In this document: in pieces, positions 3,201 to 38,929 of the stretch
Numbering within the stretch: the stretch's first letter is position 1
Layout of the letters: every line of letters begins with the position of its first letter
Source: Synechococcales cyanobacterium
Lineage (GTDB): Bacteria > Cyanobacteriota > Cyanobacteriia > CAKZMO01
Length of the DNA: 64,000 nucleotides
Assembly (NCBI GenBank): GCA_035285585.1
Contig: JAYKGU010000315.1
Span: forward strand, 5,040 to 69,039
Reading direction: 5' to 3'
Position numbers and translations under genes: made by a program
The notes under the pieces: model-generated
What the model saw: only the letters and a program-made list of their open reading frames with translations
Told to the model about the DNA's origin: nothing
Databases searched by the model: none

Positions 3201-6200
3201 GTGACTTCTCAACGGGATCAATTACAAGCGCTTATTAAGAGAATTGACGATTTGCTGAAGCGCACCGACTCTCGGTCCGGCGTTCGGCTACCCGAAATGG
3301 GGGCAGAGCGCCAGGTACTGGCGCAAACCCGTGAGTACCTGAGCCGCCTGGAGCAGCAAATGGCGGGCGGGCAGCCCTTTCCCCAGCCCGATAACGGCAG
3401 CGCCCTGATGGCCCAAAATCAGCAGGGGTGGCAGGCTCCAGCGCCGCAGATGGCCGAAACGGCCCAGCAGGTGCTGCAGGCCATTGTGCAGGAAATGAGC
3501 TTCCTGCGCACCAACATGATGCAGCCGCTGCGGGAAGAGGTGATTCAGCTTCAGCAAGAGCGGCACTTGCTGACAACCGAGATTCAGCGACTGCAGCAAG
3601 AGCGCCAGCAGCTGGCGGCGTCGCCCCAGCTCAACCAGCAAAAAATGATCCAGGAGTTTCTGAAAACGCTGATGGGGCGGCTGCAGGAGCAGCTTGCAGG
3701 CCAGGTGGCCCAGGCGATCGCCAATCTGGAAGCCCAGGCGGCTCAAACCTACTCGCTCACTGGGGGGGCTGCCCCCCAACAAATCCAGGGCCAGTCCACG
3801 GCCCTGCCCCGCCTGTCTCCCGCCGAACGACTCAAGCACCTGCAGCGCTTACAGGCCCAGTCTGACGATTTACTGCTGCGGCTGGACTCGACCCTGCGCG
3901 TCGTTTTTGAATCGCTGCAAACTAACGTTACTAGCTACCAGGACTCCCTCGCTCAGGGCCTGGAAACCATGCAAAGCCTTGGTCAGCCTGGAGAAACCAT
4001 GTTTACCGCCCTGGTGAATCGGCTGGCCAATCAGCTGGGGCGGGAAGCCTCTTATTACCTCAAGTCGCCGCCGCCCACCGAGTGGGAACTGCCCGGTCTG
4101 GCCAGCACCGACCAGGGAACAGATATTTTACTGGCCAATTCACCTGCAGACCAGGCTGAACAGCCACCGACATCCTCCGTGGCGGCGTCTCAGAATGTCC
4201 AGGACGAGATCCCCGACGACCAGGTCAACCGCATCCTGGGAACGGCTGCGCCTGCACCCGCCTCGTCCGCGCCAGAAACAGCCGCCCCGATCAGCCACCC
4301 CCTCATCAACGATCTGCTCAACGACCTGGATGCAGACCTGGCTAACCTGAACCAGGAGGACGACCTGGAGCTAGACCTGGGCCTGGACAACCTGGATCTG
4401 GACGCCGCCAGCATCGATTTGGCCGATGAGCTGTCCGACGGGGACACACCCACGCCGCTTGCCGATGACCCGTCTCCCCTACCACCAGCCGCCGCGCCTC
4501 AGCCCCCTAGCATTGAGGTAAATGACCTGTTTAGTGAGCTGGGTGAGCTGAATGAATTGGATGCAGCACCTGATGTCGCCGATGTCCCCGCTGACGCTGC
4601 CCCCCCAGAAAGAATGCCCGGAGCAGTCGATGCCGAGACAGATGAGGCCCTGGCGTTGCTGAACCAGCTCGCTACCGAGATGGAGGATCAGTTAGATGAA
4701 TCACCCTGGGATAAGCCAGGGGAGGAGACGAGCGATCGCCCGTCGGAGGATAATCTATCTGAAATGGCCACCCAAAGCGATTGGGATGCCCTGGATGAAC
4801 CGCTCTATGGCGATCGCCCCGACCTCTATGCAGAATCATCTGGCCTTCTGAATAACGAAATTGACCACGCGATCAGCGACAGCTTTGAGGACGAACTTGA
4901 AGCCGAGCTTGAAGCCGAGCTTGAAACCGAGCTTGAAGACAAACCTGCAGCCGCAGCAGACGAGATCGATGATTTTTATGCCGTCTTCAACGCCGCTACC
5001 GGCAGCGATCCATTAAGCTCGGACGACGATATTGACTCCTATGATCTCGATCCAGATGACCTCGATTCCAAAGAGGGCCATCAGGAAATTGACTCAGAAG
5101 CCTCTCTCTCGAACCTGTTTGATGAAACGGCTGACGAAACGGCTGAGGAAGAGTTCTTCACTGCCTCAGCCGGGCAGCCCGACTGGAACCAAATCGGCGG
5201 CTCAGAGGAGGTGGAGACAATCCAGCGCCTGACGGATCTGGTGCCCGATGACCCCTTCCCTGACTCAGATATGTCCACTGAGCTGTCTGAGCTAGCCGCG
5301 GGCGATCGCTATACCAACGGTTCAGCAGACATTTATATCCAGGCCTCTCCCGATGAAGACCTGCTCTCAACCACAGATACGGCGCTCACATCGGCTGATT
5401 TTCAGCTCGACGACACCCTGATGCGCCAGCTTTCAGTGGATCTGTCAAGCCTGGAAGGGCTGGAAGACGTGGAAGACGTGGAAGATACGGGGCTGGCAGA
5501 AGGCCCACCCACCGCCGCCGAAGAAGACTGGGCGGCAGCGGCAGCTACCCTTGATGCTTTTAGCGATGAGCTGGGGCCGCAAATTTCCCCTGACGAATCG
5601 GCTTTTGCTGAGCAACCTTCCCCAGAACATGTCCCCGATGCGCCTCCCGAGGCAGAGGGATCTGGAGCTGACTCTAGCGAATTGAGCAACGGGATGACGC
5701 TAGACAGCTTTGCAGACCGGATTTGGCCGCCTGCTTCGATCCTGGCAGACGAAACAGATGCAAGCCCTGCCGCCTCAGCGCCAGCCAACCCATCTCTGGA
5801 AGGCACCATCGAGTCGCTGTTTGAAGATGAAGGCTGGAAAACCCTCTCCCAAAATGAACCTGGTTCAGCCAGCCACTCGGCTGCTATTTCCCAGGAGGAT
5901 TTGGGCCTTGATGGACTGTTTCAGACGGACGACGGGGATGATGCCCTGTCCGATCCTCCGGCAACCCCAGCGCGATCGCCCAACCGTCCCACCGATGATC
6001 CTGAGACGCTCACCTATCCCTCGGCCCAGCTCTTTGCGGATCTCTTCCCCACCCCATCAGTTCCGGCTGAAGGGGAGATGGGCGATCGCTTCGACATGAC
6101 CCTGGATGATTTCGGCATGGCCGCCGATCCCTGGGAAGAAGTACCCGCCAACCCATCACCCGCCGCCGATTCTGATACCGGAGCAGGAGAAGAAACGCTG

Positions 6201-6470
6201 ACCCGCGAGAGCATTGCCGCCCTATTTAGCGACTTACCGGAGGAAGCCCCTGGTGCGCCATCCCAGGGGGAAAGCCCGGAGCAAACCCTGGCCGATCTGC
6301 TGCGGAACCCTAACGCATCGGTGCCGGGGCGCGATCGCCCCCCTGAGACCATCGAATTCCCCTCCCCGGAAGGGCTGGATCGGGAGAACGACCTCGATCC
6401 TTTCTCCCTGCTTTTTGAGTCGCGGGATGTGGATACTCCCAGCGGCGAGGATACTGAAAAAAAAAACTAG
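3201..6470 (+). CDS. large coiled-coil / highly acidic low-complexity protein (N-terminal ~300 aa Q/L-rich heptad-like; C-terminal ~750 aa D/E/P/A-rich disordered)
   Basis: 1089-aa uninterrupted ORF, GTG start with AAGGA SD; internal 12-nt and 9-nt tandem repeats coding ELEA/VED; no recognisable enzymatic motif. Confidence 0.6.
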   Translation: MTSQRDQLQALIKRIDDLLKRTDSRSGVRLPEMGAERQVLAQTREYLSRLEQQMAGGQPFPQPDNGSALMAQNQQGWQAPAPQMAETAQQVLQAIVQEMSFLRTNMMQPLREEVIQLQQERHLLTTEIQRLQQERQQLAASPQLNQQKMIQEFLKTLMGRLQEQLAGQVAQAIANLEAQAAQTYSLTGGAAPQQIQGQSTALPRLSPAERLKHLQRLQAQSDDLLLRLDSTLRVVFESLQTNVTSYQDSLAQGLETMQSLGQPGETMFTALVNRLANQLGREASYYLKSPPPTEWELPGLASTDQGTDILLANSPADQAEQPPTSSVAASQNVQDEIPDDQVNRILGTAAPAPASSAPETAAPISHPLINDLLNDLDADLANLNQEDDLELDLGLDNLDLDAASIDLADELSDGDTPTPLADDPSPLPPAAAPQPPSIEVNDLFSELGELNELDAAPDVADVPADAAPPERMPGAVDAETDEALALLNQLATEMEDQLDESPWDKPGEETSDRPSEDNLSEMATQSDWDALDEPLYGDRPDLYAESSGLLNNEIDHAISDSFEDELEAELEAELETELEDKPAAAADEIDDFYAVFNAATGSDPLSSDDDIDSYDLDPDDLDSKEGHQEIDSEASLSNLFDETADETAEEEFFTASAGQPDWNQIGGSEEVETIQRLTDLVPDDPFPDSDMSTELSELAAGDRYTNGSADIYIQASPDEDLLSTTDTALTSADFQLDDTLMRQLSVDLSSLEGLEDVEDVEDTGLAEGPPTAAEEDWAAAAATLDAFSDELGPQISPDESAFAEQPSPEHVPDAPPEAEGSGADSSELSNGMTLDSFADRIWPPASILADETDASPAASAPANPSLEGTIESLFEDEGWKTLSQNEPGSASHSAAISQEDLGLDGLFQTDDGDDALSDPPATPARSPNRPTDDPETLTYPSAQLFADLFPTPSVPAEGEMGDRFDMTLDDFGMAADPWEEVPANPSPAADSDTGAGEETLTRESIAALFSDLPEEAPGAPSQGESPEQTLADLLRNPNASVPGRDRPPETIEFPSPEGLDRENDLDPFSLLFESRDVDTPSGEDTEKKN

Positions 6471-8407: not shown

Positions 8408-8922
8408 GAAATTACCGGAAATGGTCTGGTTGGTGTTGTAGGGGCAAATGGATTTGTCTTGAAAGTCCGTCGGCTCGGGATATTTTCTCTAGGAAAGTGC
8501 CTGAGACAGGGCCGCCTGCCAGGCTATCGGTAGTAAAACTGACATCCGTGGGAACTAGCGTCAGCGGGTTACACGGAGGCAGATGGTGGTTGTGGCAGAT
8601 CTCCATGGGGGGTTAGACCCCTCATAAGACTCTGCCAAGACCCTTGGAGATTCCACTGCCGGACTGAAGAGGTATAGCTTCTATCACATCTTTACAAAGG
8701 CCACATCGAATTCAAAGATTAGACAAATACCCGACATTTGCCTACCTGGATCCGAGAGACAATTCGTATATTTACGGAAAGACAATTTCATACCGCTTGC
8801 ACCAGTAGACATTCGTTTTACAAACTTCTCATCTAGCCTGTCATCATATATCTACTGCATCGGTCATCGTCGAAATATTAACCAGTCACCACCGAAAGGA
8901 AATTAAGAGATAAGGGCTTACC

Positions 8923-14131: not shown

Positions 14132-15229
14132 TTACTTCTTCTTACCCTTTTTGCTACCGCCACTGCTGCCTTTCTTCCCGCCACTCTTTTTAGAAGGCTC
14201 TGAGAACCCAGCAGTCTTTTTGGGAGCGGCTTCCTTAGCGGAGGTATCCGATTCAGGGGCCTTCTCTTCTACGGGTGCCTCCGGCTCGGCGACGGCTGGC
14301 GATTCGGCTACTGCCTCTGGTTCAGGAGTAGCTTCCGGTTCAGCAGCAACCTCTACCTCCGGCTCAAGAGCAGCTTCGGGTTCGGGAGCCGCAACCTCTG
14401 CTTCGGCTTCAGGAATGGTTTCCGGCTCGGGAGCGGCAACTTCTGCTTCCGGCTCAGTAACAGCTTCGGGTTCGGGAGCGGCCTTAGCAGCGGCGGGTTC
14501 GGGTGCAGGAACAGGAGCCTCCGGGTCAGGAGCGACTTCAGGTTCAGCAGCAGGCTCAGGGGCCGGGGCAGTTTTCTTACCCGCCTGGGCAGCTACCTCA
14601 GCAGCGAAGTCTGTCTCCTCTTTCTCGATGCCCTCACCCAAAACGAAACGAGCAAAGCGACGCACCTGAATCTTCTCGCCAAGCTGGCCAGAGGTCGTCT
14701 TCACCAGTTCCTCAACGGTGATGCTCTGATCCCGGATGTAGGGCTGATCGAGCAGGGAAAGCTCCTGTAAACGCTTGCCAATGCGTCCCTCGACGATCTT
14801 CTCGCGGATGTTCTCTGGCTTATTTGCCAGATCGTCGCGTCCCATTTCGATTTCCTTTTCCTTTCGCACCGTTGCTTCAGGAATCTCGTCCGTGGAGACG
14901 TATTCCACGTTGGGGCAGGCGGCAATCTGCATGGCGATGTTCTTCACCAGATCCTGGAATTCCTCGTTGCGGGCAACGAAGTCAGTCTGACAGTTGACTT
15001 CCACCAGCACGCCAACCCGACCGCCGGTGTGAATGTAGCTGCCAACCAATCCCTCAGCAGCCACCTTACCTGCTTTTTTCTCGGCGGAAGCAATTCCCTT
15101 TTGGCGGAGCCACTCCGTCGCTTTCTCCATGTCGCCCCCAGTTTCGGTGAGGGCTTTTTTGCAATCCATCATACCCGCGCCAGTTTTTTCGCGCAGCTCT
15201 TTTACGAGTTTTGCCGATACTTCAGCCAT
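14132..15229 (-). CDS. tsf: elongation factor Ts with ~150-aa C-terminal Pro/Glu/Ala-rich and Lys-rich extension
   Basis: N-terminus [27 protein letters not shown] (UBA-like EF-Ts N domain); canonical core ~215 aa then PEPEA repeats and [19 protein letters not shown] tail. Confidence 0.9.
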
Positions 15230-15402: not shown

Positions 15403-16203
15403 TTAAGAGTCGGAATCGTCTTCATCTTCGTCTGTGGACTCGTCGTAGTCGTCGTAGTCGTCCTCAGCCCCGTCGTAATCGGCATACATATCCTCGTCGC
15501 CCATATCCATGTCGTCTAACTGCCCGTGGCGACCTTCGTAAATCGCATCGGCAAGGCGACCGATGATGAGCTTGATGGAGCGAATGGCGTCGTCGTTTGC
15601 GGGAATGGGAATATCGGCGTAATCAGGATCGCAGTTGGTGTCCAGCATCGAGACGATGGGGATGTCTAGCTTAATGCATTCCTGAATAGCGTTGTACTCC
15701 CGCCGCTGGTCAATGATGACGACAATATCGGGAACCTGGCGCATCAGTTTAATACCGCCCAGGTACTTTTGCAGCTTTTCTAGCTCACGGCGGAGCACGG
15801 CGGCTTCCTTCTTTGGAAGCAGATTCAAAGCTCCGGTTTCTTCGCGGCGCTCCAGCTCTTTGAGGCGATCGACCCGCGTTTTAATGGTAGTCCAGTTGGT
15901 TAGCATGCCCCCCAGCCAGCGCTGGTTGACATAGTAAGCACCACAGCGAGAAGCTTCCTGGGCGACGATCCCGGCGGCCTGCCGCTTGGTGCCGACAAAC
16001 AAAAATTTCTTGCCCTGCTCGGCAGCATCCCGCATGTAGGCGTAGGCTTCTTCCATGAGCTGGGCGGTCTGCACCAGGTCAATGATGTGAACGCCATTGC
16101 GGGATGTGTAAATATATTCCGCCATTTTGGGGTTCCAGCGGCGGGTCTGGTGGCCAAAGTGGACCCCTGACTCAAGCAATTGAGCCAATTCAACAACCGG
16201 CAT
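15403..16203 (-). CDS. rpsB: 30S ribosomal protein S2 (acidic C-terminal tail)
   Basis: [27 protein letters not shown]; classic rpsB-tsf arrangement. Confidence 0.9.
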
Positions 16204-18426: not shown

Positions 18427-19101
18427 TCATCGGGACAAACGCCGAGAAGGCTTGCCCTCAAAAGGAATCAGGGTGCCTTCGGCGATCGCATAAGCCACCG
18501 TCCCCAATTTCAGCGAAACCTCATAGCCACCCGTAAAGCTACCAAACGAGGGCAGCAAGATCAGGTTTTGGGGGCGATCGACGTAGAAGCAGGGGAGCCG
18601 CAGGGAATCCAGACGGGTTGTGAGCTTCAGGCAGGGATGGACGTGACCGCACAGATTGAGGTGATTTGCCTGGGGTTGGGGATCGTGGCTGAGGAACAGG
18701 GTTCCCAACGCCAATGTTTCAGTAATTTGCTGGTTGGGAATCTGGGGGAGGTGGTGGGCGAAGGGGCGATCGTGGTTACCGACGAGGAGGGTCACATCCG
18801 CATCAGTCCCATGCAAAAATGCGGCCCACGGTTCGAGCACCTCGTCTACCAGCGCTAACCGGGAGTGGAATAAGTCGCCCAGGATGACCAGGCGCTGCGG
18901 TCGGAACCGCTGACAGAGCTGGGAGAGGCGATCGAGGGTGTCCTGGTTCACCCGGTTGGCGATGGGGATTCCATAGTGCTGGAAGGTCTCCGACTTGCCC
19001 AGGTGGAGGTCGGCCACCAGCAGGGTTTGCCAGTCGGGCAGGTAGATGGCCTTTTCCGGCAGCAGGGTGAGGGTGGTATGGGCGAGGGTCAGGTCAATCA
19101 T
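18427..19101 (-). CDS. pdeM: ligase-associated DNA damage response phosphoesterase PdeM (calcineurin-like metallophosphoesterase)
   Basis: LVADLHLGKS...ILGDLFH...GNHD metallophosphoesterase motifs; start immediately after helicase stop (overlap/abutting). Confidence 0.7.
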   Translation of the reverse strand: MIDLTLAHTTLTLLPEKAIYLPDWQTLLVADLHLGKSETFQHYGIPIANRVNQDTLDRLSQLCQRFRPQRLVILGDLFHSRLALVDEVLEPWAAFLHGTDADVTLLVGNHDRPFAHHLPQIPNQQITETLALGTLFLSHDPQPQANHLNLCGHVHPCLKLTTRLDSLRLPCFYVDRPQNLILLPSFGSFTGGYEVSLKLGTVAYAIAEGTLIPFEGKPSRRLSR

Positions 19102-21536
19102 GAGGGCGTCTTTTTCTCCCACTGCTGCTTCAGGCGCTCGATGCGCTCCAGCAGGCTTTCGTTGGACATGCGCGAGTTGAGCCGCTCCACCAGCAGGGGA
19201 AAGGCGAAGGGCGAGGGCCGTTTCGTGTCCTGCCAGCGGAGGGTGAGATGGCTGAGCCGATCTAGGGTGGCGGTGAGGCGATGCACTTCGAGCTGCTGCG
19301 CCATCACCTCCCGCTCGGCCTGCCGCAGCAGCAGATTCTCCGGCTCATATTTGCTGAACACTTCAAAAATCAGGGAGGAACTCACCTGGAGTTGGCCAGA
19401 GGTTTTGCGGGAGGAGGGGTAGCCCTTAAACACCAGCCCCGCCACCTGGGCAATGTCGCGGAAGCGCCGCTGAGTAAGTTCTGACAGATTCAGGCTGGCC
19501 TTCACGTCGTCGTAAAGCGCCTCCAGGCTGAGGAAGTCTTCAGAGAACAGGGTTTTGAACGGATAGTCCCTGGGAGCCAGAATCTCAAAGCCGTAGTCGT
19601 TCACCGAAATCGTAAAGGTGGCGTGCTGCTGGCGGGCAAAGCGATAGCCCCACAGAAAGCCCAGCCCCTCATGCACCCAGCGTCCCTCGAATGGGAAGAC
19701 ATAGAGATGTTGCCCTTCGCGGGTTTGGCAGGTTTCGATCAGCAGCTCATCGGCGGCGGGCAAACGGGAGAGGCGCTGCTGCACCGAGAGAATGGGGCGG
19801 ATGCAGGTGAGTTCCTCGTTCTGGTGGGAGTCCATCAGGGCGTTGGCGACCTCCTGCCGCAGGTGGTGGCTGAGGGTGTCGGAAATGGCTAGATTGCCAC
19901 CGTACCAGACGGGGGTGACCGTGGACTTTTTGGTGGTATTGCGCACGTAGACCACCATGTCCTTCATCATCCAGAACTCTAGCTGCCGTCCCGCAAAGAA
20001 AAACACGTCCCCCTTCTTGAGGCGCGAGACAAAGTTTTCCTCGACGGTGCCGATGTCCTTGCGATTTGTATAAACAATGCGCACCGTCTGGTTGGAGGAA
20101 ATGGTGCCGATGCCCATCCGGTGCATGCGGGCGATCGCCCCCTCCGTTACCCGATAAACCCCATCCTCCCGACTGACCTTGCGATAGCGGGGATAGGCGC
20201 TGAGGCACTGGCCGCCGTTCTCAATAAAATTCAGCATCCACTGGAATCCCCCGTCCGTCAGGTCCGCATAGGCGACGGTTTGCCGCACGTCCGCCAGCAC
20301 GGCTTCTGGGACAAAGCCATCACCGCAGGCCAGGGTCACCAGATGCTGAATCAGCACATCATAAGGACAGGCAAGCGGATGGCGGGCCTCAATATCCCCC
20401 AGGGCCAGCCCCCGCCGAAAAGCAGAGATTTCCAGCAGCTCCAGGGCGTTGGTGGGCAGAAACAAAATTTCCGAGGTGCCTTCGGGGATGTGGGCCGATC
20501 GCCCCGCCCGCTGAAGCAGTCGCGCCAGGTTTTTGGCGCTGCCAATCTGCACCACCCGCTCCACCGGCTGGAAGTCCACCCCCAGATCCAGGGACGAGGT
20601 GCAGACCACCCACTTAATGTCCCCGGACTTCACCCCTGCCTCGATCGCCTCTCGCTCTTTGACGTGAATGGAGCCGTGGTGGAGCGCGATGCGATCGCCA
20701 TACTCCGGCACCGCAAACTGGAGGGCCTGATACCACCGCTCGGACTGGGAGCGGGTGTTGGTGAAAATCAGAGTAGACGTTTCGATGTCCAGGGCGTCCA
20801 CCAATTCCTGGAACATGCGCAGCCCCAGATGTCCGGCCCAGGGAAAGCTGTCTACGGATTCCGGGAGAATGCTGCGAATGACGGTGCGCCGCTTCAGGTC
20901 GGACTGGATGATCACCGGCTGGCAGCCCAGGCCCACCGCCGCCTGGGCCGCTTCCTGGGGATTGCCCAAGGTTGCCGACACCGCCCAGGTTTGCAGGTCG
21001 GGTCGCAGTCGCCGCAGGTGGGACAGGCACAGCTCCGTTTGAGTACCCCGCTTGGAGTGAAGCAGCTCGTGCCACTCATCCAGAATTACCGCTTTCAGGG
21101 CACTGAACCGTTTGGCAGAGTCCTTATAGGAAAGCATCACCGAGAGGGATTCGGGGGTGGTGATCAGGATATCTGGCATGGCCTTGAGCTGGCGGGCCTT
21201 GCGGGAGGAGCTGGTGTCCCCCGTGCGGGACTCCACCGTCAGGGGCCAGCCCATCTCTTCAATGGGGCGGCGGATGGCCTGCTCGATGTCCCGCGCCAGT
21301 GCCCGCAGTGGTGTGAGGTAGAGGAGCTGTAGTCCTACGCCAGGGGATTCCAGGAGTTGGGCGATCGCCCCCATCACGGCAGCATAGGTTTTGCCCGACC
21401 CGGTGGGCACCTGAATCATGCCGCTTTGGCCCGCCAGGTAAGCGTCCCAGGTTTGCCGCTGAAAGGGCAGGGGCTGCCAACCCTGGCGCTGAAACCAGTC
21501 GAGGATTGGCTCTAGACGGGGGCAGGACACGATCAA
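19098..21536 (-). CDS. lhr: Lhr-core type DEXH-box helicase (ligase-associated DNA damage response helicase)
   Basis: 812 aa; Walker A PTGSGKT, DEWH box, SAT, QRAGRSAH motif VI, long C-terminal WH/domain-4-like region. Confidence 0.8.
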   Translation of the reverse strand: MIVSCPRLEPILDWFQRQGWQPLPFQRQTWDAYLAGQSGMIQVPTGSGKTYAAVMGAIAQLLESPGVGLQLLYLTPLRALARDIEQAIRRPIEEMGWPLTVESRTGDTSSSRKARQLKAMPDILITTPESLSVMLSYKDSAKRFSALKAVILDEWHELLHSKRGTQTELCLSHLRRLRPDLQTWAVSATLGNPQEAAQAAVGLGCQPVIIQSDLKRRTVIRSILPESVDSFPWAGHLGLRMFQELVDALDIETSTLIFTNTRSQSERWYQALQFAVPEYGDRIALHHGSIHVKEREAIEAGVKSGDIKWVVCTSSLDLGVDFQPVERVVQIGSAKNLARLLQRAGRSAHIPEGTSEILFLPTNALELLEISAFRRGLALGDIEARHPLACPYDVLIQHLVTLACGDGFVPEAVLADVRQTVAYADLTDGGFQWMLNFIENGGQCLSAYPRYRKVSREDGVYRVTEGAIARMHRMGIGTISSNQTVRIVYTNRKDIGTVEENFVSRLKKGDVFFFAGRQLEFWMMKDMVVYVRNTTKKSTVTPVWYGGNLAISDTLSHHLRQEVANALMDSHQNEELTCIRPILSVQQRLSRLPAADELLIETCQTREGQHLYVFPFEGRWVHEGLGFLWGYRFARQQHATFTISVNDYGFEILAPRDYPFKTLFSEDFLSLEALYDDVKASLNLSELTQRRFRDIAQVAGLVFKGYPSSRKTSGQLQVSSSLIFEVFSKYEPENLLLRQAEREVMAQQLEVHRLTATLDRLSHLTLRWQDTKRPSPFAFPLLVERLNSRMSNESLLERIERLKQQWEKKTPS

Positions 21537-21576
21537 AACTTCTCCAACGGGCTGATCAGAGGGGGCCGCAAGTTTA

Positions 21577-21658
21577 CGTAGGGTGTGTCATCGCGTAGCG
21601 TGACGCACCGAAGCGTGAGGTCGCGGTGCGTTGGGCTGACGCCACAACACACCCTACG
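21577..21658. repeat. structured inverted-repeat element, family GTAGGGTG...CACCCTAC (12-bp outer arms, nested CGCACCG/CGGTGCG hairpin)
   Basis: read directly; shares GTAGGGTG / AGCGTRACGCACCG / GGGCTG / CACCCTAC blocks with element at 39740-39832. Confidence 0.55.
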
Positions 21659-21760
21659 GCTGGGGGACACTGCGATCGCCCCATTGTTGGTGGGGGCGAA
21701 CAGAAGCATGAAACCCAACAATCTTAAACTTAACGATATAGCCCTGCGGGCTAAGGTTTG

Positions 21761-21796
21761 AGTGTGGAACCTCTGTGACGCAGGGGTTCCACACCT
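21761..21796. other. perfect 12-bp stem / 12-nt loop hairpin (AGGTGTGGAACC...GGTTCCACACCT)
   Basis: read directly; intergenic between lhr (minus) and Uma2 gene (plus). Confidence 0.6.
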
Positions 21797-21849
21797 CTTG
21801 AATGTCCTGACGTGAAAGCGTAATGCTATAATACACAGCTTAAAAAATT

Positions 21850-22458
21850 ATGGGACAGACCCCAACTCAACCAGAAACCCTATTGCTTGAGCTGCCAGAC
21901 GCGATCGCCCTCCACGTCACTCAAGAACAGTTTGAGGCACTGGCAATTGCCAATCGAGACTTAAGGCTAGAACGCACGGCAGCCGGAGAATTGCTCGTGA
22001 ATCCCCCCACAGGCGGCGAATCGGGTAGGCGTAACCGCAGCATCACTGGACAACTCGATCGCTGGTATGAAGAAAACGAAGACTTAGGAGAAGCGTTTGA
22101 CTCCTCGACGGGATTTAGGCTGCCCAACGGGGCTGACCGCTCTCCTGATGCTGCTTGGGTCCGTCGAGAACGTTGGGAATCCCTGACTCCCCAACAGCGA
22201 AAAGGCTTCGTCCCACTGTGTCCCGATTTTGTCGTCGAATTGCGGTCTGAATCGGATAGCCTCCCAAAATTGCAGGCCAAAATGCGGGAATACATCGATA
22301 ACGGAGCCAGACTAGGATGGTTAGTTGACCCACAGAACAGGCAGGTAGAGATCTATCGCCCCGACAGAGAAGTGGAAGTGTTGGAAAATCCCCAGGAATT
22401 TTCTGGCGAGGATGTACTACCGCAGTTTGTTATGCGTTTTAGCAGGATTTGGTGCTAA
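21850..22458 (+). CDS. Uma2-family (DUF820) putative restriction-endonuclease-like protein
   Basis: 202 aa; N-terminal pattern ...EQFEALAIANRDLRLERTAAGELLVNPPTGGESG... typical of cyanobacterial Uma2 proteins. Confidence 0.75.
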   Translation: MGQTPTQPETLLLELPDAIALHVTQEQFEALAIANRDLRLERTAAGELLVNPPTGGESGRRNRSITGQLDRWYEENEDLGEAFDSSTGFRLPNGADRSPDAAWVRRERWESLTPQQRKGFVPLCPDFVVELRSESDSLPKLQAKMREYIDNGARLGWLVDPQNRQVEIYRPDREVEVLENPQEFSGEDVLPQFVMRFSRIWC

Positions 22459-22464
22459 TTGGTG

Positions 22465-22607
22465 GCGCGATCATTGGTATGGGCTGTGTTGGGTTTCGCA
22501 TCCGCTCAACCCAACCTACAAAGTTTTCTATTGACTCAAATTCACAACAGTAGCGCGATCATTAGTATGGGCTGTGTTGGGTTTCGCATCCGCTCAACCC
22601 AACCTAC
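22465..22607. repeat. two copies (22465-22519, 22553-22607; 1 mismatch) of a 55-nt repeat each containing hairpin GTTGGGTT-12nt-AACCCAAC, in convergent gene gap
   Basis: read directly. Confidence 0.8.
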
Positions 22608-22646
22608 GGTTGCTGGCGCTGTCAACTGAGAACCAGGATGTGAAAG

Positions 22647-23594
22647 CTAGGATGCAGTCCCCTGAAGACGGTTGAGATTCCAGTTGACGCAGGAAACGCC
22701 AAGAATGACCAGAACACTGCCCAGCAGCAAGGCACTGGTAATCGATTCCTGTAGGAAAAGCGCACCAAACGTTACGGCAAATATGGGTACCAGGTTGATG
22801 AAAATAGACGCCTTAGCCGGACCAATGGCCTGAATTCCCTCGTAATACCAGCTAAACCCCAACACTGTGCCCAGCAGGCCCAGATAGAGTAGACTCAGCC
22901 ATACAGACGGCATCGTCAAGGGGGACCCGTCTCCGCTCCTGTCCCACAGGGCCAGCGGCAGCAGGGCGATCGCCCCCACCCATACCGCATAGGTCGTGGC
23001 CACGACAGGGGAAAGTTCTTTCATCACCTGTCGGCCAACTATGGAATACACGCTCCAACTCGCCACACAGCCCAAAAGCAGCAGTTCACCCCGCCCTATC
23101 CCTTCAGACAGCAGTGTTGCGAGCTGTCCGTCGGTGATCACCAGTGCCGCCCCCACGAGGGAAATCAGCGTTCCAATCAGCTTAAACCGGGTCAGGCGCT
23201 CCTGCAAAAATAGGGCCGAACACAGGGTAATCACCACCGGATTTAAGGCGATGATCAGCCCCGCACGGCTGGCGGGTATCGTTTGCAGGCCTGAAAAGAA
23301 AAACACGTTGTAGGCAAACACACCGCTCAGACCCAGCACAAGAATCGGGAAAATTTGGCGGGCTTTAAGCGGTGGCAGCGGCTCCTGGCGATGATAGGTC
23401 CAGAGGTAGAGGGCGATCGCCGCGATCGCAAATCGACCCAGTGCTGCCCCATAGGGACTCATCTCCTGAGCCAAAATTCGGCCTGCAATAAATGTACCGC
23501 CCCAGAAGGCCATGGTCAGCACCAGCTTCAGATAAATCAGAGACATGTTTGGCGTCTTGCAACAGCGTATGGCTTCAGCATAGTCCTTACTCAA
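22647..23594 (-). CDS. DMT-superfamily (EamA-like) transporter
   Basis: 315 aa, ~10 predicted TM helices, duplicated EamA-like halves. Confidence 0.8.
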   Translation of the reverse strand: MSKDYAEAIRCCKTPNMSLIYLKLVLTMAFWGGTFIAGRILAQEMSPYGAALGRFAIAAIALYLWTYHRQEPLPPLKARQIFPILVLGLSGVFAYNVFFFSGLQTIPASRAGLIIALNPVVITLCSALFLQERLTRFKLIGTLISLVGAALVITDGQLATLLSEGIGRGELLLLGCVASWSVYSIVGRQVMKELSPVVATTYAVWVGAIALLPLALWDRSGDGSPLTMPSVWLSLLYLGLLGTVLGFSWYYEGIQAIGPAKASIFINLVPIFAVTFGALFLQESITSALLLGSVLVILGVSCVNWNLNRLQGTAS

Positions 23595-24127
23595 TGCAGG
23601 TTTAGGGCGTAGTTATGGAATCAAAACTGGCTTAAATAATTACAGCCGGTTTACCTCCAACCGTCTTTGGGCATGGAGACCCGGACTTGCACCGTGGTAT
23701 CTGGGTTGATGGGCATTTGGCAACAGTGTGGCAACAGTTCTCCCTCAGACTAGCAAAAAGAACCCCCAGGGTTAAGCCAGGGTTAAGTTTGAGCCTGTTC
23801 CTTATCTTGTAGTCCCCTGTGTCCAGCATGTTGTCTTGAGATAAGAATCATTTCGAAGTATCAAGAAAGAATTCGGGTTTTCAATAACTTTCAGCGCTAA
23901 ATTCGTTGGCAAATAAAGCCCATCACGCCTGGGCCGAATATTACAAAAGTTCAGATCAATTTAAAGGTTATGGTTCCCGGAAAACGTCAAGATTTGCATC
24001 GCCAGATCTGACAATTTCCTTAAGACATTGCGCTCAACGGGACTCCTCATTAGAGAATTCGGCTAGCTAGAGTTGGACGCAACATGCGCTCTAGATGCCG
24101 CCCGTTTGTCACGTTGGGTATCAAGCA

Positions 24128-27100
24128 ATGAACACCAATCAACCGCCCGTTAAGCAGGGTCTTTATGACCCCCAATTTGAACACGATGCCTGCGGCGTCG
24201 GATTTGTCGTCCACATGAAGGGAGTCCAGTCCCACGCCATTGTCGAACAGGCGCTGACGATTTTGCTCAACCTGGAGCATCGCGGTGCGGTGGGGGCCGA
24301 ACCCAACACGGGTGACGGTGCTGGCATTTTGATGCAGGTGCCCCACAAGTTCATGACCAAAGTGGCGGCGATCGCCAACATCACCCTCCCCGCCCCTGGC
24401 CACTACGGCGTGGGCATGATTTTCGCCTCCCCCGATGCCGCCGCCCGCGAGCAGGGCCGCCGCGCCTTTGAGCAGGTGGTCGCCGCCGAGGGTCAGCAAG
24501 TCCTGGGCTGGCGCGACGTGCCCACCGACCATTCCTCCCTGGGGGAGACGGCACGGGCCAGCGAACCGTTTATGCAGCAGGTGTTTATTGGGCGATCGCC
24601 CGACGTAACCGACGAACTGGCCTTCGAGCGGAAGCTCTACATCATCCGCAAAATGGCCCACACCGCCATCCACTGCACGGGCATTGATACCTACTGGTAT
24701 CCCGCCAGCCTCTCCTGCCGCACGATTGTCTATAAGGGGATGCTGACCCCGGCCCAGGTGGGCGACTATTACCCGGATTTGAGCGATCCGGACCTGGAGA
24801 GCGCCCTGGGGCTGGTGCATTCCCGCTTCAGCACCAACACGTTCCCCAGTTGGGAGCGATCGCACCCTTACCGCTACATCGCCCACAACGGCGAGATCAA
24901 CACCCTGCGGGGAAATATTAACTGGATGCACGCCCGCCAGTCCCTCTTTGAGTCCGAGCTGTTTGGCGATGGCCTGAAGCGGGCCTATCCGCTGATCAAC
25001 ATTGAGGGCAGCGACTCCCTGATTTTTGACAATGCCCTGGAGCTGCTGACTTTGGCGGGGCGATCGCTCCCCCATGCGGTGATGATGATGATCCCCGAAC
25101 CCTGGACGGCCCACGAGTCCATGAGTGCGCAGAAGAAGGCGTTTTACAAATACCACTCCTGCCTGATGGAGCCGTGGGATGGTCCCGCCTCCATCGCCTT
25201 CACGGACGGCACCATGATGGGGGCAGTGCTGGATCGCAACGGTCTGCGGCCTTCCCGCTACTACGTCACCAAGGACGACCGGGTGATCATGGCGTCGGAG
25301 GCCGGGGTGCTGCCCGTGGAGCCGGAAAACGTGCTGAAGAAGGGCCGCCTGGAGCCGGGGCGCATGTTCCTGGTGGATATGGCGGCAGGGCGCATTGTGG
25401 CGGATGAGGAGATCAAGCAGCAGATTGTCTCCGAGCATCCCTACCAGGAATGGCTGGATCGGCACATGGTTTCCCTGGCGGATCTGCCTGACGCCATTAA
25501 TACGTCCGACGCCGTTAATACGTCCCACGACCGCGTAGGGGCACGGCATGCCGTGCCCCTACGCAACCCATCGCAACCCACCGGCATCCCGCAACCCACC
25601 GATATCACGCAACCCACCGGTATCACGGAACCCACCGATATCCCGCAACCCATCGACATCGCGGAACCCATCGGCATCACGGAACCCACCGATATCCCGC
25701 AACCCACCGACACCACGGAACCCACCGACATCACGGAACCAGCCAATATACCCCTACACCAGCGGCAGAAGGCATTCGGCTACACCTTTGAAGAACTGCG
25801 AATGCTGCTGACGCCGATGGCCCAAAACGGCGTGGAAGCAATCGGGTCGATGGGGACGGATACGCCCCTGGCAGTGTTGAGCGATCGCCCCAAGCTTCTT
25901 TACGACTACTTCCAGCAGCTTTTCGCCCAGGTGACCAACCCGCCCATCGACTCCATCCGCGAGGAAATCATCACCTCCCCGGAGACCACCATCGGCTCGG
26001 AGCGCAATTTGCTGAAGCCAGAGCCGGAAAGCTGCCATCTGATTGAGCTGAAAACTCCGGTGCTCACCAATGGAGAACTGGCGAAGCTGAAGGCCATTAA
26101 TCACGGGGATTTCAAGTCGGTCACTCTACCAATCCTGTTCGACCCCAAATTAGGTGTCGCCGGGCTGGAGACCCGGATGGACGCCATTTGTGCCGAGGCG
26201 GATGCGGCGATCGAGGATGGGAAGAGCGTGCTTATTTTGAGCGATCGCCCCCTCGATGCCGACCACGCCCCCATCCCCGCCCTGCTGGCCGTCGCAGGAC
26301 TGCACCACCACCTGATCCGCAAGGGCACCCGCACCCGTGTCGGCCTGGTGCTGGAGTCGGGCGAACCCCGCGAAGTCCATCATTTTGCCGTGCTGATTGG
26401 CTATGGCTGCGGGGCCATCAACCCCTACCTGGCCTTTGAGACCATCGACGCCATGATCCAGCAGAAGGAGCTGCTGAACGTGGATCTCAAAACCGCCTGC
26501 AAAAACTACATTAAGGCGGTGACTAAAGGGGTGATTAAGATCGCCTCCAAAATCGGCATCTCCACCATCCAGAGCTACCGGGGTGCCCAGATTTTCGAGA
26601 GCATCGGCCTCAACCAGGCAGTGATCGACAAGTACTTCACCTGGACGGCTTCCCGCATTGAGGGGGCGGATCTGGCGGTGATTACCCAGGAGGCCATCCT
26701 GCGCCACGCCCATGCCTTCCCCGGTCGGGAGGTGGAGGACACCACCCTGGACGTGGGCGGCGAATACCAGTGGCGCAAAGAGGGCGAACGTCACCTGTTC
26801 AGCCCCGAAGCCATCCACAGCCTCCAGCGAGCCGTGCGCGAAGGCGACTACGATCTCTACAAAAAATACGCTGCCCTAGTGAATGACCAGAGCAAGACCC
26901 ACTTCACCCTGCGGGGACTGCTGGACTTCAGAGCCAGAGAACCCATCCCCCTGGAGGAAGTGGAGTCTGTCGAGGAGATTGTCAAGCGGTTCAAGACCGG
27001 GGCCATGAGCTACGGGTCGATTTCCAAGGAGGCCCATGAGACGCTGGCGATCGCCATGAATCGCTTAGGCGGCAAGTCCAACACGGGCGAAGGCGGCGAA

Positions 27101-28945
27101 GACCCCGAACGCTACACCTGGACAAACGAGCAGGGCGACTCCAAAAACAGCGCCATCAAGCAGGTGGCCTCCGGTCGCTTTGGCGTCACCAGCCTCTACC
27201 TCTCCCAGGCGCGGGAAATCCAAATCAAAATGGCCCAGGGAGCCAAGCCCGGTGAAGGGGGGCAATTACCCGGACTCAAGGTCTACCCCTGGGTAGCCAA
27301 GGTGCGCCACTCCACCCCCGGCGTGGGCCTGATCTCGCCGCCGCCCCACCACGACATCTATTCCATTGAGGATCTGGCAGAACTGATCCACGACCTGAAG
27401 AATGCCAACCGGGAAGCCCGCATCAGCGTCAAGCTGGTATCAGAGGTGGGCGTCGGCACCATCGCCGCCGGAGTCGCCAAAGCCCACGCCGATGTGGTGC
27501 TGATCTCCGGCTTCGACGGCGGCACGGGCGCATCACCCCAGACCTCCATCAAGCACGCGGGACTCCCCTGGGAGCTAGGTCTGGCGGAAACCCACCAAAC
27601 CCTGGTGCTAAACAACCTCCGGTCGCGCATTGCCGTGGAAACTGATGGGCAGATGAAGACGGGGCGGGATGTGGCGATCGCCACCCTCCTGGGCGCTGAA
27701 GAGTACGGCTTCTCCACCGCGCCCCTGGTCTCCCTGGGCTGCATCATGATGCGGGTCTGCCACAAGAACACCTGCCCCGCCGGTATCGCCACCCAAAACC
27801 CCGTCCTCCGGCAAAACTTTGTGGGCGATCCCCAGCACACCGTCCACTTCATGCGGTTCGTCGCTCAAGAACTGCGGGAAATCATGGCAGAACTGGGCTT
27901 CCGCTCCATCAACGAGATGGTGGGCCGCACTGATGTGCTGGAAGCCAAGCAAGCCGTGGATCACTGGAAGGCCAAGGGCATCGACCTGTCCAAGATCCTC
28001 CACCAGCCGCAGGTGGGCGCAGACATCGGGCGCTACTGCCAGATTCCCCAGGATCACGGGCTGGACAAGTCCCTGGACATGACCACCCTGTTGGACCTGT
28101 GCCGCCCCGCCATCGAAAGCGGCGAGCCGGTCAGCGCCACCCTCCCCATCTGCAACATTAACCGGGTGGTGGGCACCATCCTCGGCAACGAAATCACCAA
28201 GCGCCACTGGGACGGCTTGCCCGAAGACACGGTACGGCTCCACTTCCAGGGCAGCGCCGGACAGAGCTTCGGCGCATTTGTCCCCAAAGGGGTGACGCTG
28301 GAACTGGAAGGGGACGCCAACGACTACTTTGGCAAGGGACTCAGCGGCGGCAAGCTGATCATCTACCCCCCCAGCGGCTCCACCTTCGTGCCGGAGGAGA
28401 ACATCATCATCGGCAACGTCGCCTTCTACGGCGCGACCGGGGGCGAAGCCTACATCTCTGGCGTGGCTGGGGAGCGGTTCTGCGTCCGCAACTCTGGCGT
28501 CCGCACGGTGGTGGAAGCGGTGGGCGACCACGCCTGCGAATACATGACCGGCGGCAAGGTAGTGATTCTCGGCCAGACCGGGCGCAACTTCGCGGCAGGC
28601 ATGAGCGGCGGCATCGCCTATGTACTGGATGAGGCGGGCGATTTCCCCACCCGCTGCAACACCCAGATGGTCGATCTGGAGCAGTTGGCGGACCCCGAAG
28701 AAATTCGCGAAATCCACGACCTGATCCAGAAGCACGCGGACTACACCCAGAGTCAGCGTGCCAAGACAATTCTGGAAAATTGGGAGAGTCTAATTCCCAA
28801 GTTCGTGAAGGTGATGCCCCGCGACTACAAGCGAGTGCTGCAACACATCCAGAAAGCCCTGGCGGACGGCCTCAGCGGCGACGATGCCCTTGCCGCCGCC
28901 TTCGAGGAAAATGCCCGCGACATTGCCCGCATTGGCGGTAGTTGA
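24128..28945 (+). CDS. gltB: glutamate synthase large subunit (NADH-GOGAT alpha)
   Basis: propeptide then [11 protein letters not shown] Ntn-amidotransferase start; FMN and 3Fe-4S central/synthase domains; GXGXG C-terminal domain; paired with gltD downstream. ORF opens at 24095, start chosen at Met 11 aa before Cys. Confidence 0.9.
25533..25564. repeat. 32-nt perfect palindrome GCGTAGGGGCACGGCATGCCGTGCCCCTACGC lying in-frame inside gltB
   Basis: read directly; member of TAGGGGCA..TGCCCCTA family (also 28955, 38892). Confidence 0.85.
25564..25752. repeat. in-frame 18-nt tandem repeat (~10 units, CAACCCACCGRYATCNCG) encoding hexapeptide repeats PTDIxQ/PTGITE within gltB
   Basis: read directly; units start 25574,25592,25610... 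; translated ...[32 protein letters not shown]... Confidence 0.85.
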
Positions 28946-28954
28946 TGCACCTGA

Positions 28955-28985
28955 GGTAGGGGCAAGGCAATGCCTTGCCCCTACC
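28955..28985. repeat. 31-nt palindrome GGTAGGGGCAAGGCAATGCCTTGCCCCTACC 10 nt after gltB stop
   Basis: read directly; same family as 25533 and 38892. Confidence 0.85.
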
Positions 28986-29027
28986 TGAAATCAATGGGAT
29001 GAGATTAGAAGGTGAGAAGCAAAACCA

Positions 29028-29435: not shown

Positions 29436-30916
<1,481 letters not shown>

Positions 30917-30920
<4 letters not shown>

Positions 30921-38891: not shown

Positions 38892-38929
38892 AACCTGTAG
38901 GGGCATGGAATTCCATGCCCCTACAGGTT
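38892..38929. repeat. 38-nt perfect palindrome AACCTGTAGGGGCATGGAA|TTCCATGCCCCTACAGGTT between convergent genes
   Basis: read directly; family TAGGGGCA..TGCCCCTA. Confidence 0.85.

Follow-up and report, generated by a model that had tools for sequence, protein, structure and literature searches.

How does a core enzyme of nitrogen assimilation come to carry ten tandem copies of a hexapeptide between two of its domains? The question is raised by gltB, the gene for the large (alpha) subunit of NAD(P)H-dependent glutamate synthase (GOGAT), in a 64,000-nt stretch of contig JAYKGU010000315.1 from a Synechococcales cyanobacterium (assembly GCA_035285585.1, a metagenome-assembled genome, MAG); this whole stretch is referred to below as the window. 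An original prediction, made from the sequence alone, had described an in-frame repeat array in this gene as an unusual and possibly hypervariable insertion. In our reading the array is probably a lineage-specific coding minisatellite that was amplified from a single ancestral hexapeptide segment in a permissive, exposed loop, and is near-neutral for the enzyme. Its kind is known (a coding minisatellite in a disordered linker beside an intragenic repetitive extragenic palindrome, REP), and it is the place that is unusual.

The array comprises ten head-to-tail 18-nt units at positions 25574–25753 of the forward strand, as delimited by Tandem Repeats Finder (TRF), the unit register, a table of units and pattern enrichment. 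The units are read in frame from 25574 and encode 60 residues, with a translation exactly as originally given. Their consensus, SAA CCC AYC GRY ATC NCG (also written SAACCCAYCGRYATCNCG), codes for [Q/E]-P-[T/I]-[G/D]-I-[P/T/A]. TRF detects the 18-nt period at 25572–25740 (9.4 copies, 84% matches, no indels, score 205) as well as a three-unit super-period of 54 nt (3.1 copies, score 262). A degenerate unit pattern gives nine contiguous matches in the array and two weak, scattered ones, where ~0.63 are expected per whole window, and none of the shuffled sequences reached 11 matches. The array has several properties expected of a coding minisatellite: the repeats are far beyond chance, the unit is a multiple of three, the frame is kept, and copy number differs among relatives. 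Units 4 and 7 are identical, and an exact 31-nt repeat at 25622 and 25676 (54-nt spacing) is the longest exact internal repeat of the array; together these record a more recent three-unit duplication and form the substrate for further in-frame gain or loss. The last unit, EPANIP (25736–25753, GAACCAGCCAATATACCC), is the most divergent and the nearest to the ancestral N-I-P form, of which it retains AAT-AT(A/C)-CC(C/T). An old edge unit with homogenised interior units is the usual pattern, as in this array. Codon 2 (Pro) is invariant across the units and codon 5 (Ile) nearly so, and five of the six variable nucleotide sites in units 1–9 alter the amino acid. The GC content of the array (0.59–0.63) is the same as that of the rest of gltB, only the strand skew of the C/A-rich unit being unusual, and a foreign origin of the DNA was dismissed because of this equality. 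RNA folding leaves the array essentially unstructured, with the neighbouring palindrome alone forming a fold. G-quadruplex or i-motif formation was dismissed as weak, as one GGG/CCC run per 18 nt would leave loops of ~15 nt.

The gene that carries the array (24128–28945, forward strand) is assigned as gltB by its Pfam domains and by alignment with 7mfm, the Bacillus subtilis GltA and the closest solved structure (E=0). The reading frame is open from 24095 to 28945 (1616 codons), with the start annotated by NCBI at M12 (position 24128), and the resulting 1605-aa product is identical to NCBI MEB3360393.1 (‘MAG: Synechococcales bacterium’). Four Pfam domains are intact and in canonical order (E-values 1e-86 to 1e-192), namely GATase_2 (residues 22–442), Glu_syn_central (545–829), Glu_synthase (891–1258, the flavin mononucleotide domain) and GXGXG (1340–1525), and the catalytic-Cys motif, which follows a short propeptide, aligns with that of 7mfm. 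The array is located within the loop that joins the glutaminase (N-terminal nucleophile, Ntn, amidotransferase) domain to the central domain, in the Pfam gap at 442–545. Here the alignment with 7mfm breaks at chain residues 451/460, with 86 residues present versus about 8. In Azospirillum brasilense GltB, the boundary between the glutaminase and central domains is at residue 422/423 (PMC8097209), and in B. subtilis GltA the equivalent site is a long exposed loop running from the Ntn to the central domain, in which the ‘GudB regulatory loop’ (residues 445–455) binds GudB (bioRxiv 10.1101/2021.04.12.439528). An AlphaFold2 model of GltB residues 12–901, built with 47 homologs and of moderate quality (mean predicted local distance difference test score, pLDDT, 61.6), has its longest continuous low-confidence stretch at residues 459–539 (pLDDT ~27–31), all of which is predicted as coil. 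The model and the exposed position of the B. subtilis loop both agree with the original suggestion of a surface loop, and the insert is best described as a predicted disordered loop-out at a surface connection.

No known family or relative of the insert emerged from the searches. Pfam matched no family over GltB residues 443–544, and an insert-only, word-indexed search of 5.8 billion proteins gave no match. Exhaustive phmmer against 1.84 billion representatives returned 52 matches, none of them a GltB and none in an informative family; these were rejected as homologs, being unrelated low-complexity proteins whose tandem hexapeptide repeats, [E/Q]Pxx[I/V]x, bear a loose resemblance to the array. 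The array unit has no other copy within the window, plasmids searched with the array yielded nothing beyond a 47-nt match in Cupriavidus at chance level, and a literature search found no report of repeats in the GOGAT linker.

To place the loop among its relatives, a cyanobacterial comparison set was formed from the best 120 homologs, in 118 of which both anchors were found. A set from other phyla comprised 77 loci among the matches listed for a query of the N-terminal 890 aa; it is taxonomically scattered, is without the closest species, and was used for the loop-length distribution only. Most of the best 120 cyanobacterial GltB homologs are ~1525–1535 aa long, and the loop is the main length-variable segment. 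Between the second anchor pair the loop measures 49–86 aa in the 118 cyanobacterial homologs versus 128 aa here, and between the anchors GRLEPGRM and FGYT it measures 59–104 aa in the 77 bacterial loci (median 60) versus 136 aa here, which bears out the expectation of a normally short linker. Among the ~200 homologs examined (the best 120 cyanobacterial ones and the other-phyla matches listed), the linker of the window is the longest. The array is less exceptional in kind than had been implied, since the loop is a general hot spot for low-complexity inserts and small tandem duplications in cyanobacteria, Planctomycetes and Betaproteobacteria. The cyanobacterial GltB loops hold many differing low-complexity inserts (NG-, PS-, HP- and DTG-rich). 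In Planctomycetes (loci L006, L007, L009–L011, L013 and L018) the loop is independently longer, by up to ~44 aa, and in Comamonadaceae and other Betaproteobacteria (L017–L028 and L051) it is ~11–21 aa longer; the insert is conserved within each group. A different in-frame duplication, of 15 nt in two copies (SVRTG/SVRTD), occurs in the same gltB loop of two metagenome contigs from a P0004-type relative (L004 and L005; JGI12210J13797_10025310 and JGI12048J13642_10428023), which indicates that small tandem duplications recur at this loop.

The relatives also reveal the single segment from which the array could have grown. At the orthologous site, the closest ortholog (L001, 94.9% nt identity) has two units, GAATCCACCGAAATCCCG and GAATCCACCGACATCCCC (ESTEIP and ESTDIP), 3′ of an imperfect palindrome, L002 (85% nt identity) has one degenerate unit without the palindrome, and L003 (83% nt identity) has one unit, GACTCATCCAATATCCCT (DSSNIP), before PLHQ. 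This series of 10 copies in the window versus 2, 1 (degenerate) and 1 is what 18-nt changes would give, in line with the frame-preserving steps originally proposed. The GltB proteins of the window and L001 are 97.2% identical over 1551 aligned residues, and all the gaps in their alignment (3+3+48 residues) are confined to this loop. Upstream of the first full unit is a junction or proto-unit, CGCAACCCATCG (R-N-P-S; 25562–25573, forward strand; TRF row 25562–25580), which leads from the palindrome into the array and contains an out-of-register copy of the unit's first 10 nt (10-nt period, 1.9 copies). The equivalent sites, CGTAACCACTCG in L001 and CGCACCCCATCG in L003, each precede the double or single unit. 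A second, unrelated in-frame 18-nt tandem duplication (2.2 copies, DAINTS/DAVNTS), detected by TRF and repeat search, is present at 25490–25529 of the forward strand, on the 5′ side of the palindrome, and is not present in L001. The 86-residue insert is therefore made of three adjoining parts, namely this duplication, the 32-nt palindrome and the ten-unit array. An array of identical length in all relatives, corresponding to a conserved structured domain, is the opposite of what was found. A scan of metagenomes with a 21-nt flank common to the window and L001 gave no match, and a scan with a degenerate linker-peptide pattern gave only the two contigs of the more distant relative described above (L004 and L005), with no strain-level variants.

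The age of the units bears on how fast the array changes. Units 1–9 differ pairwise by 0–22% (mean 16%), whereas 11% of four-fold degenerate sites differ between the window and L001. This comparison of sequences suggests that most units date from around the time when the lineages of the window and L001 separated, or from before it, and very fast change of the array looks unlikely. A unit divergence of 16% against a neutral 11% points to a slowly evolving coding minisatellite rather than to a fast contingency locus, and because the 18-nt unit is a multiple of three, slippage cannot switch gltB off.

The palindrome beside the array is a perfect 32-nt inverted repeat at 25533–25564 (GCGTAGGGGCACGGCA/TGCCGTGCCCCTACGC; 16+16 nt, 100% complementary, no spacer), which is GTAG-tagged, REP-like and translated in frame as VGARHAVPL. 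Its arms, GTAGGGGCACGGCA and TGCCGTGCCCCTAC, are perfect and give a 14-bp hairpin in the RNA fold. The array begins 7–9 nt 3′ of it, so that the two adjoin as originally described. As a short, GC-rich stem-loop with terminal GTAG, the palindrome appears to fit the GTAG-tagged REP class. Such REPs have been described in cyanobacteria; members of the class are occasionally intragenic and in frame, and can then add some tens of residues to the protein (Di Nocera et al. 2013, PMC3733652). The family is bounded by GTAGGGGC...GCCCCTAC, and also by GTAGGGGCA...TGCCCCTAC, and the window holds three full copies, two of which are intergenic, and one half-site (8438–8446). The second member, AGGTAGGGGCAAGGCA a TGCCTTGCCCCTACCT, lies at 28954–28986, 9 nt after the gltB stop codon, and the third at 38892–38929, in an intergenic gap without an open reading frame (ORF) of at least 60 aa; neither has 18-nt-type repeats alongside.

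A GTAG...CTAC palindrome is also present in the gltB loop of 15 of 117 cyanobacterial homologs (~13%), always translated as VGAxxxxPL. These loop palindromes, among them the one in the window (25533–25564), those of L086 and L088 (1863–1890 in each) and those in the gltB linkers of L087, L001 and L003, are spread over no fewer than six separate clades of a rough neighbour-joining tree, and sister taxa are often without one. Their distribution suggests that one permissive site has either been entered repeatedly or has long kept its palindrome. The window and the gltB linker of Leptolyngbya iicbica share an identical 28-nt core, with only ~77% identity between the two proteins over the N-terminal 890 aa. 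Between the window (25535–25562) and the L001 linker (GTAGGGGCAAATCGCCATTTGCCCCAAC), 10 of 28 positions differ despite 94.9% DNA identity of the genes, and four of the five central base pairs are altered on both sides with the hairpin preserved. The change looks like a swap for another family member or an arm-to-arm correction, and not like ordinary point mutation. The loops of L086, L087 and L088 contain the palindrome without such arrays, and tandem duplications on both of its flanks were seen uniquely in this window.

Taken together, these observations are probably best explained by the growth of a minisatellite. An ancestral segment of the form D/E-S-S/T-N/D-I-P, immediately ahead of the conserved residues that open the central domain, would have been amplified head to tail to ten units, most likely by replication slippage (slipped-strand mispairing) or unequal recombination and partly in 54-nt blocks of three units. 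Selection would filter for preservation of the frame only, as gltB is essential for nitrogen assimilation and only multiples of 3 nt survive. The expansion would be tolerated because of its site in the solvent-exposed loop between the glutaminase and central domains, where the extra 60 residues, with much Pro, Thr, Ile, Asp and Glu, may bulge out as an acidic, disordered stretch. Neither the ammonia tunnel nor the catalytic domains would then be disturbed, and we infer that the effect of the array on the enzyme is neutral or nearly so. The palindrome would be a separate REP-like element, acquired independently at this permissive site. Replication stalls at palindromes, which also stimulate misalignment in their vicinity, and the one here may have promoted the small tandem duplications beside it by such stalling; a causal role is made plausible by duplications on both flanks.

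Several points weigh against this reading. The AlphaFold2 model, from which the predicted disorder derives, is of moderate overall quality (mean pLDDT 61.6). A large part of the array may be older than the split between the window and L001; L001 would then have contracted to its two units, and an array kept for so long would leave room for selection. The invariance of Pro2, the near-invariance of Ile5 and the amino acid changes at five of the six variable sites are compatible with some constraint on the peptide pattern, the numbers being too small to test. Any ongoing instability of the array would be hypothetical, as the metagenome scans yielded the more distant relative only. As the sequence is from a MAG, the exact copy number rests on the assembly. 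Finally, the equivalent loop of B. subtilis binds a regulatory partner, and by this analogy neutrality is not guaranteed.

The last of these points leads to an alternative in which the loop has been selected for function, as a flexible tether, as a solubility or halo-adaptation feature, or as a partner-docking loop like that of B. subtilis GltA for GudB. The insert sits exactly at the position of the ‘GudB regulatory loop’ (residues 445–455), and a mean unit divergence of 16%, which equals or exceeds the neutral 11%, implies that the array is of some age. The second residue of the unit is always Pro and the fifth nearly always Ile, hexapeptide arrays of a similar [E/Q]Pxx[I/V]x type are seen again in unrelated proteins, and other proteins encoded in the window have acidic repeat tails. 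The closest ortholog, however, at 97% aa identity, works with two units and other relatives with one or none, neither the sequence nor the length of the loop is conserved across cyanobacteria, and the insert is without a recognised family or motif. No cyanobacterial partner is known, and recent common descent of the units can account for the conserved Pro and Ile. We consider selection for such a function unlikely. A more elaborate version, drawn by analogy with B. subtilis and decidedly doubtful, would make the cyanobacterial GltB loop a recurrent landing site for translated GTAG palindromes (VGAxxxxPL) that seed in-frame expansions, with the array as an evolved docking or regulatory arm in contact with a partner. 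It is likewise quite improbable that the copy number or unit order was made, inflated or collapsed by short-read metagenome assembly. A MAG contig with internal repeats of up to 31 nt and periods of 18 and 54 nt could mislead a small-k assembly, and the collections searched hold no second independent sequence of the allele, but the imperfect units (84% matches) leave no 33-mer of the region repeated, and with a longest exact repeat of 31 nt an assembly at k≥33 is unambiguous. Moreover, the array keeps the frame exactly, the 1605-aa protein shows 97% identity to its ortholog elsewhere, and an independent assembly of the sister lineage has a homologous two-unit array in the same place.

The association with the palindrome invites the idea of a composite mobile insertion, in which the palindrome and the flanking 18-nt repeats came as one small element, such as a REP or miniature inverted-repeat transposable element with repeat cargo, that entered gltB in frame. 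The palindrome is indeed one of a dispersed GTAG-tagged family, further copies of which lie in the window, it recurs in the same GltB loop in at least six separate cyanobacterial clades, tandem duplications lie on both of its sides, and intragenic REPs are documented (PMC3733652). The unit, on the other hand, is homologous to sequence in L002, which is without the palindrome, and occurs as a single copy in L003; this local ancestry contradicts a composite element. The palindromes at 28954 and 38892 and in the loops of L086, L087 and L088 are without adjoining repeats, and the unit was found nowhere else in the window, in the insert-only protein search or among plasmids, all of which makes a joint arrival very improbable. 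Least credible of all is a contingency locus, that is, a rapidly mutating on/off switch for gltB or a varying exposed epitope. Tandem repeats with long exact sub-repeats and a copy number that differs between relatives are features that such a locus would share, yet slippage in steps divisible by three leaves the frame intact, GltB is a core enzyme of the cytoplasm, and the units are 16% diverged, unlike the near-identical units of fast contingency repeats.

On the opposite strand, the 499-aa antisense ORF that had been taken to read through the repeat extends from 24050 to 25549; it ends within the palindrome and never reaches the array, so that this part of the original prediction does not hold. 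The antisense ORF that does span the array is at 25441–25746 and encodes 101 aa. Both were dismissed as genes, having no Pfam match and lying opposite a highly conserved gene. Downstream of gltB on the forward strand is gltD (29436–30920; Pfam Fer4_20 and Pyr_redox_2), encoding the small (beta) subunit of NAD(P)H-glutamate synthase, and the array-bearing gene is thus part of a standard gltBD pair; the gltB-gltD arrangement is the same in L001 and L003. Upstream, synteny differs, with genes for an Lhr-type helicase, a Uma2 endonuclease and an EamA transporter in the window (19098–23594) and a gas-vesicle cluster in L001 (1–2688; gvpK, gvpL/F, gvpG and GvpA-family genes).

Repetitive acidic segments are encoded elsewhere in the window. 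A gene on the reverse strand at 14132–15229, elongation factor Ts (EF-Ts) by its N-terminal sequence, has a C-terminal extension of ~150 aa with acidic repeats of the PEPEA/EVAA type, and its tail contains an in-frame 45-nt tandem repeat in 3.1 copies that is acidic and Pro-rich (14342–14482). Ribosomal protein S2, identified by sequence (15403–16203, reverse strand), has a long, strongly acidic tail rich in D, E and Y, and a 1089-aa, very acidic low-complexity ORF at 3201–6470 of the forward strand contains in-frame tandem repeats at 4885–4944, 5120–5150 and 5461–5485 (ELEAELEAELETELED, VEDVEDVED). Acidic, Pro-rich repeat extensions in housekeeping genes, of which EF-Ts is the clearest, suggest a genome-wide tolerance of, or tendency towards, such expansions.

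If the array is the near-neutral minisatellite that we propose, it would be a natural example of a core enzyme that tolerates 86 residues in place of ~8 at one surface loop, and the loop would be a permissive site usable for tagging or engineering GOGAT. It would also be a case in which two repeat processes, REP colonisation and minisatellite expansion, have acted on the same few codons. As a marker, the array could distinguish strains of this cyanobacterial lineage, and it would have no bearing on open questions of nitrogen assimilation unless the loop binds a partner as in B. subtilis. What remains of most interest is the recurrence of translated GTAG palindromes in one GltB loop across cyanobacteria.

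Comparison with known systems places the array among coding repeats. The short tandemly repeated repetitive (STRR) sequences of cyanobacteria have heptanucleotide (7-nt) units and are mostly intergenic. HIP1 (GCGATCGC), which occurs in the window, is an 8-nt dispersed palindrome of cyanobacterial genomes (PMC4390886). Like both, the array is repetitive DNA in a cyanobacterial genome, and unlike both it is built of 18-nt coding units. The neighbouring palindrome resembles GTAG-tagged REPs and Rickettsia palindromic elements in being short, GC-rich, bounded by GTAG/CTAC, dispersed, in frame and translated, whereas the array itself is non-palindromic, non-dispersed and of local origin. The array occupies the same structural position in the GOGAT large subunit as the ‘GudB regulatory loop’ of B. 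subtilis GltA; the latter is short and non-repetitive with a demonstrated partner, whereas the loop here is 86 residues long, repetitive and acidic, with no sequence similarity to it. Among the interdomain linkers of bacterial multidomain enzymes are the PT linkers of cellulases and the Ala/Pro-rich linkers in the E2 chains of 2-oxoacid dehydrogenases. GltB, by comparison, is tightly packed and tunnel-containing, and its domains do not move like beads on a string; the array is a loop-out from a normally 8-residue connection rather than a tether, and its motif, [Q/E]P[T/I][G/D]I[P/T], belongs to no described linker family. What the array has in common with coding minisatellites and such linkers is a head-to-tail arrangement of units divisible by three, a low-complexity Pro/Thr-rich peptide with predicted disorder, a position between folded domains, and a copy number that varies among related genomes.

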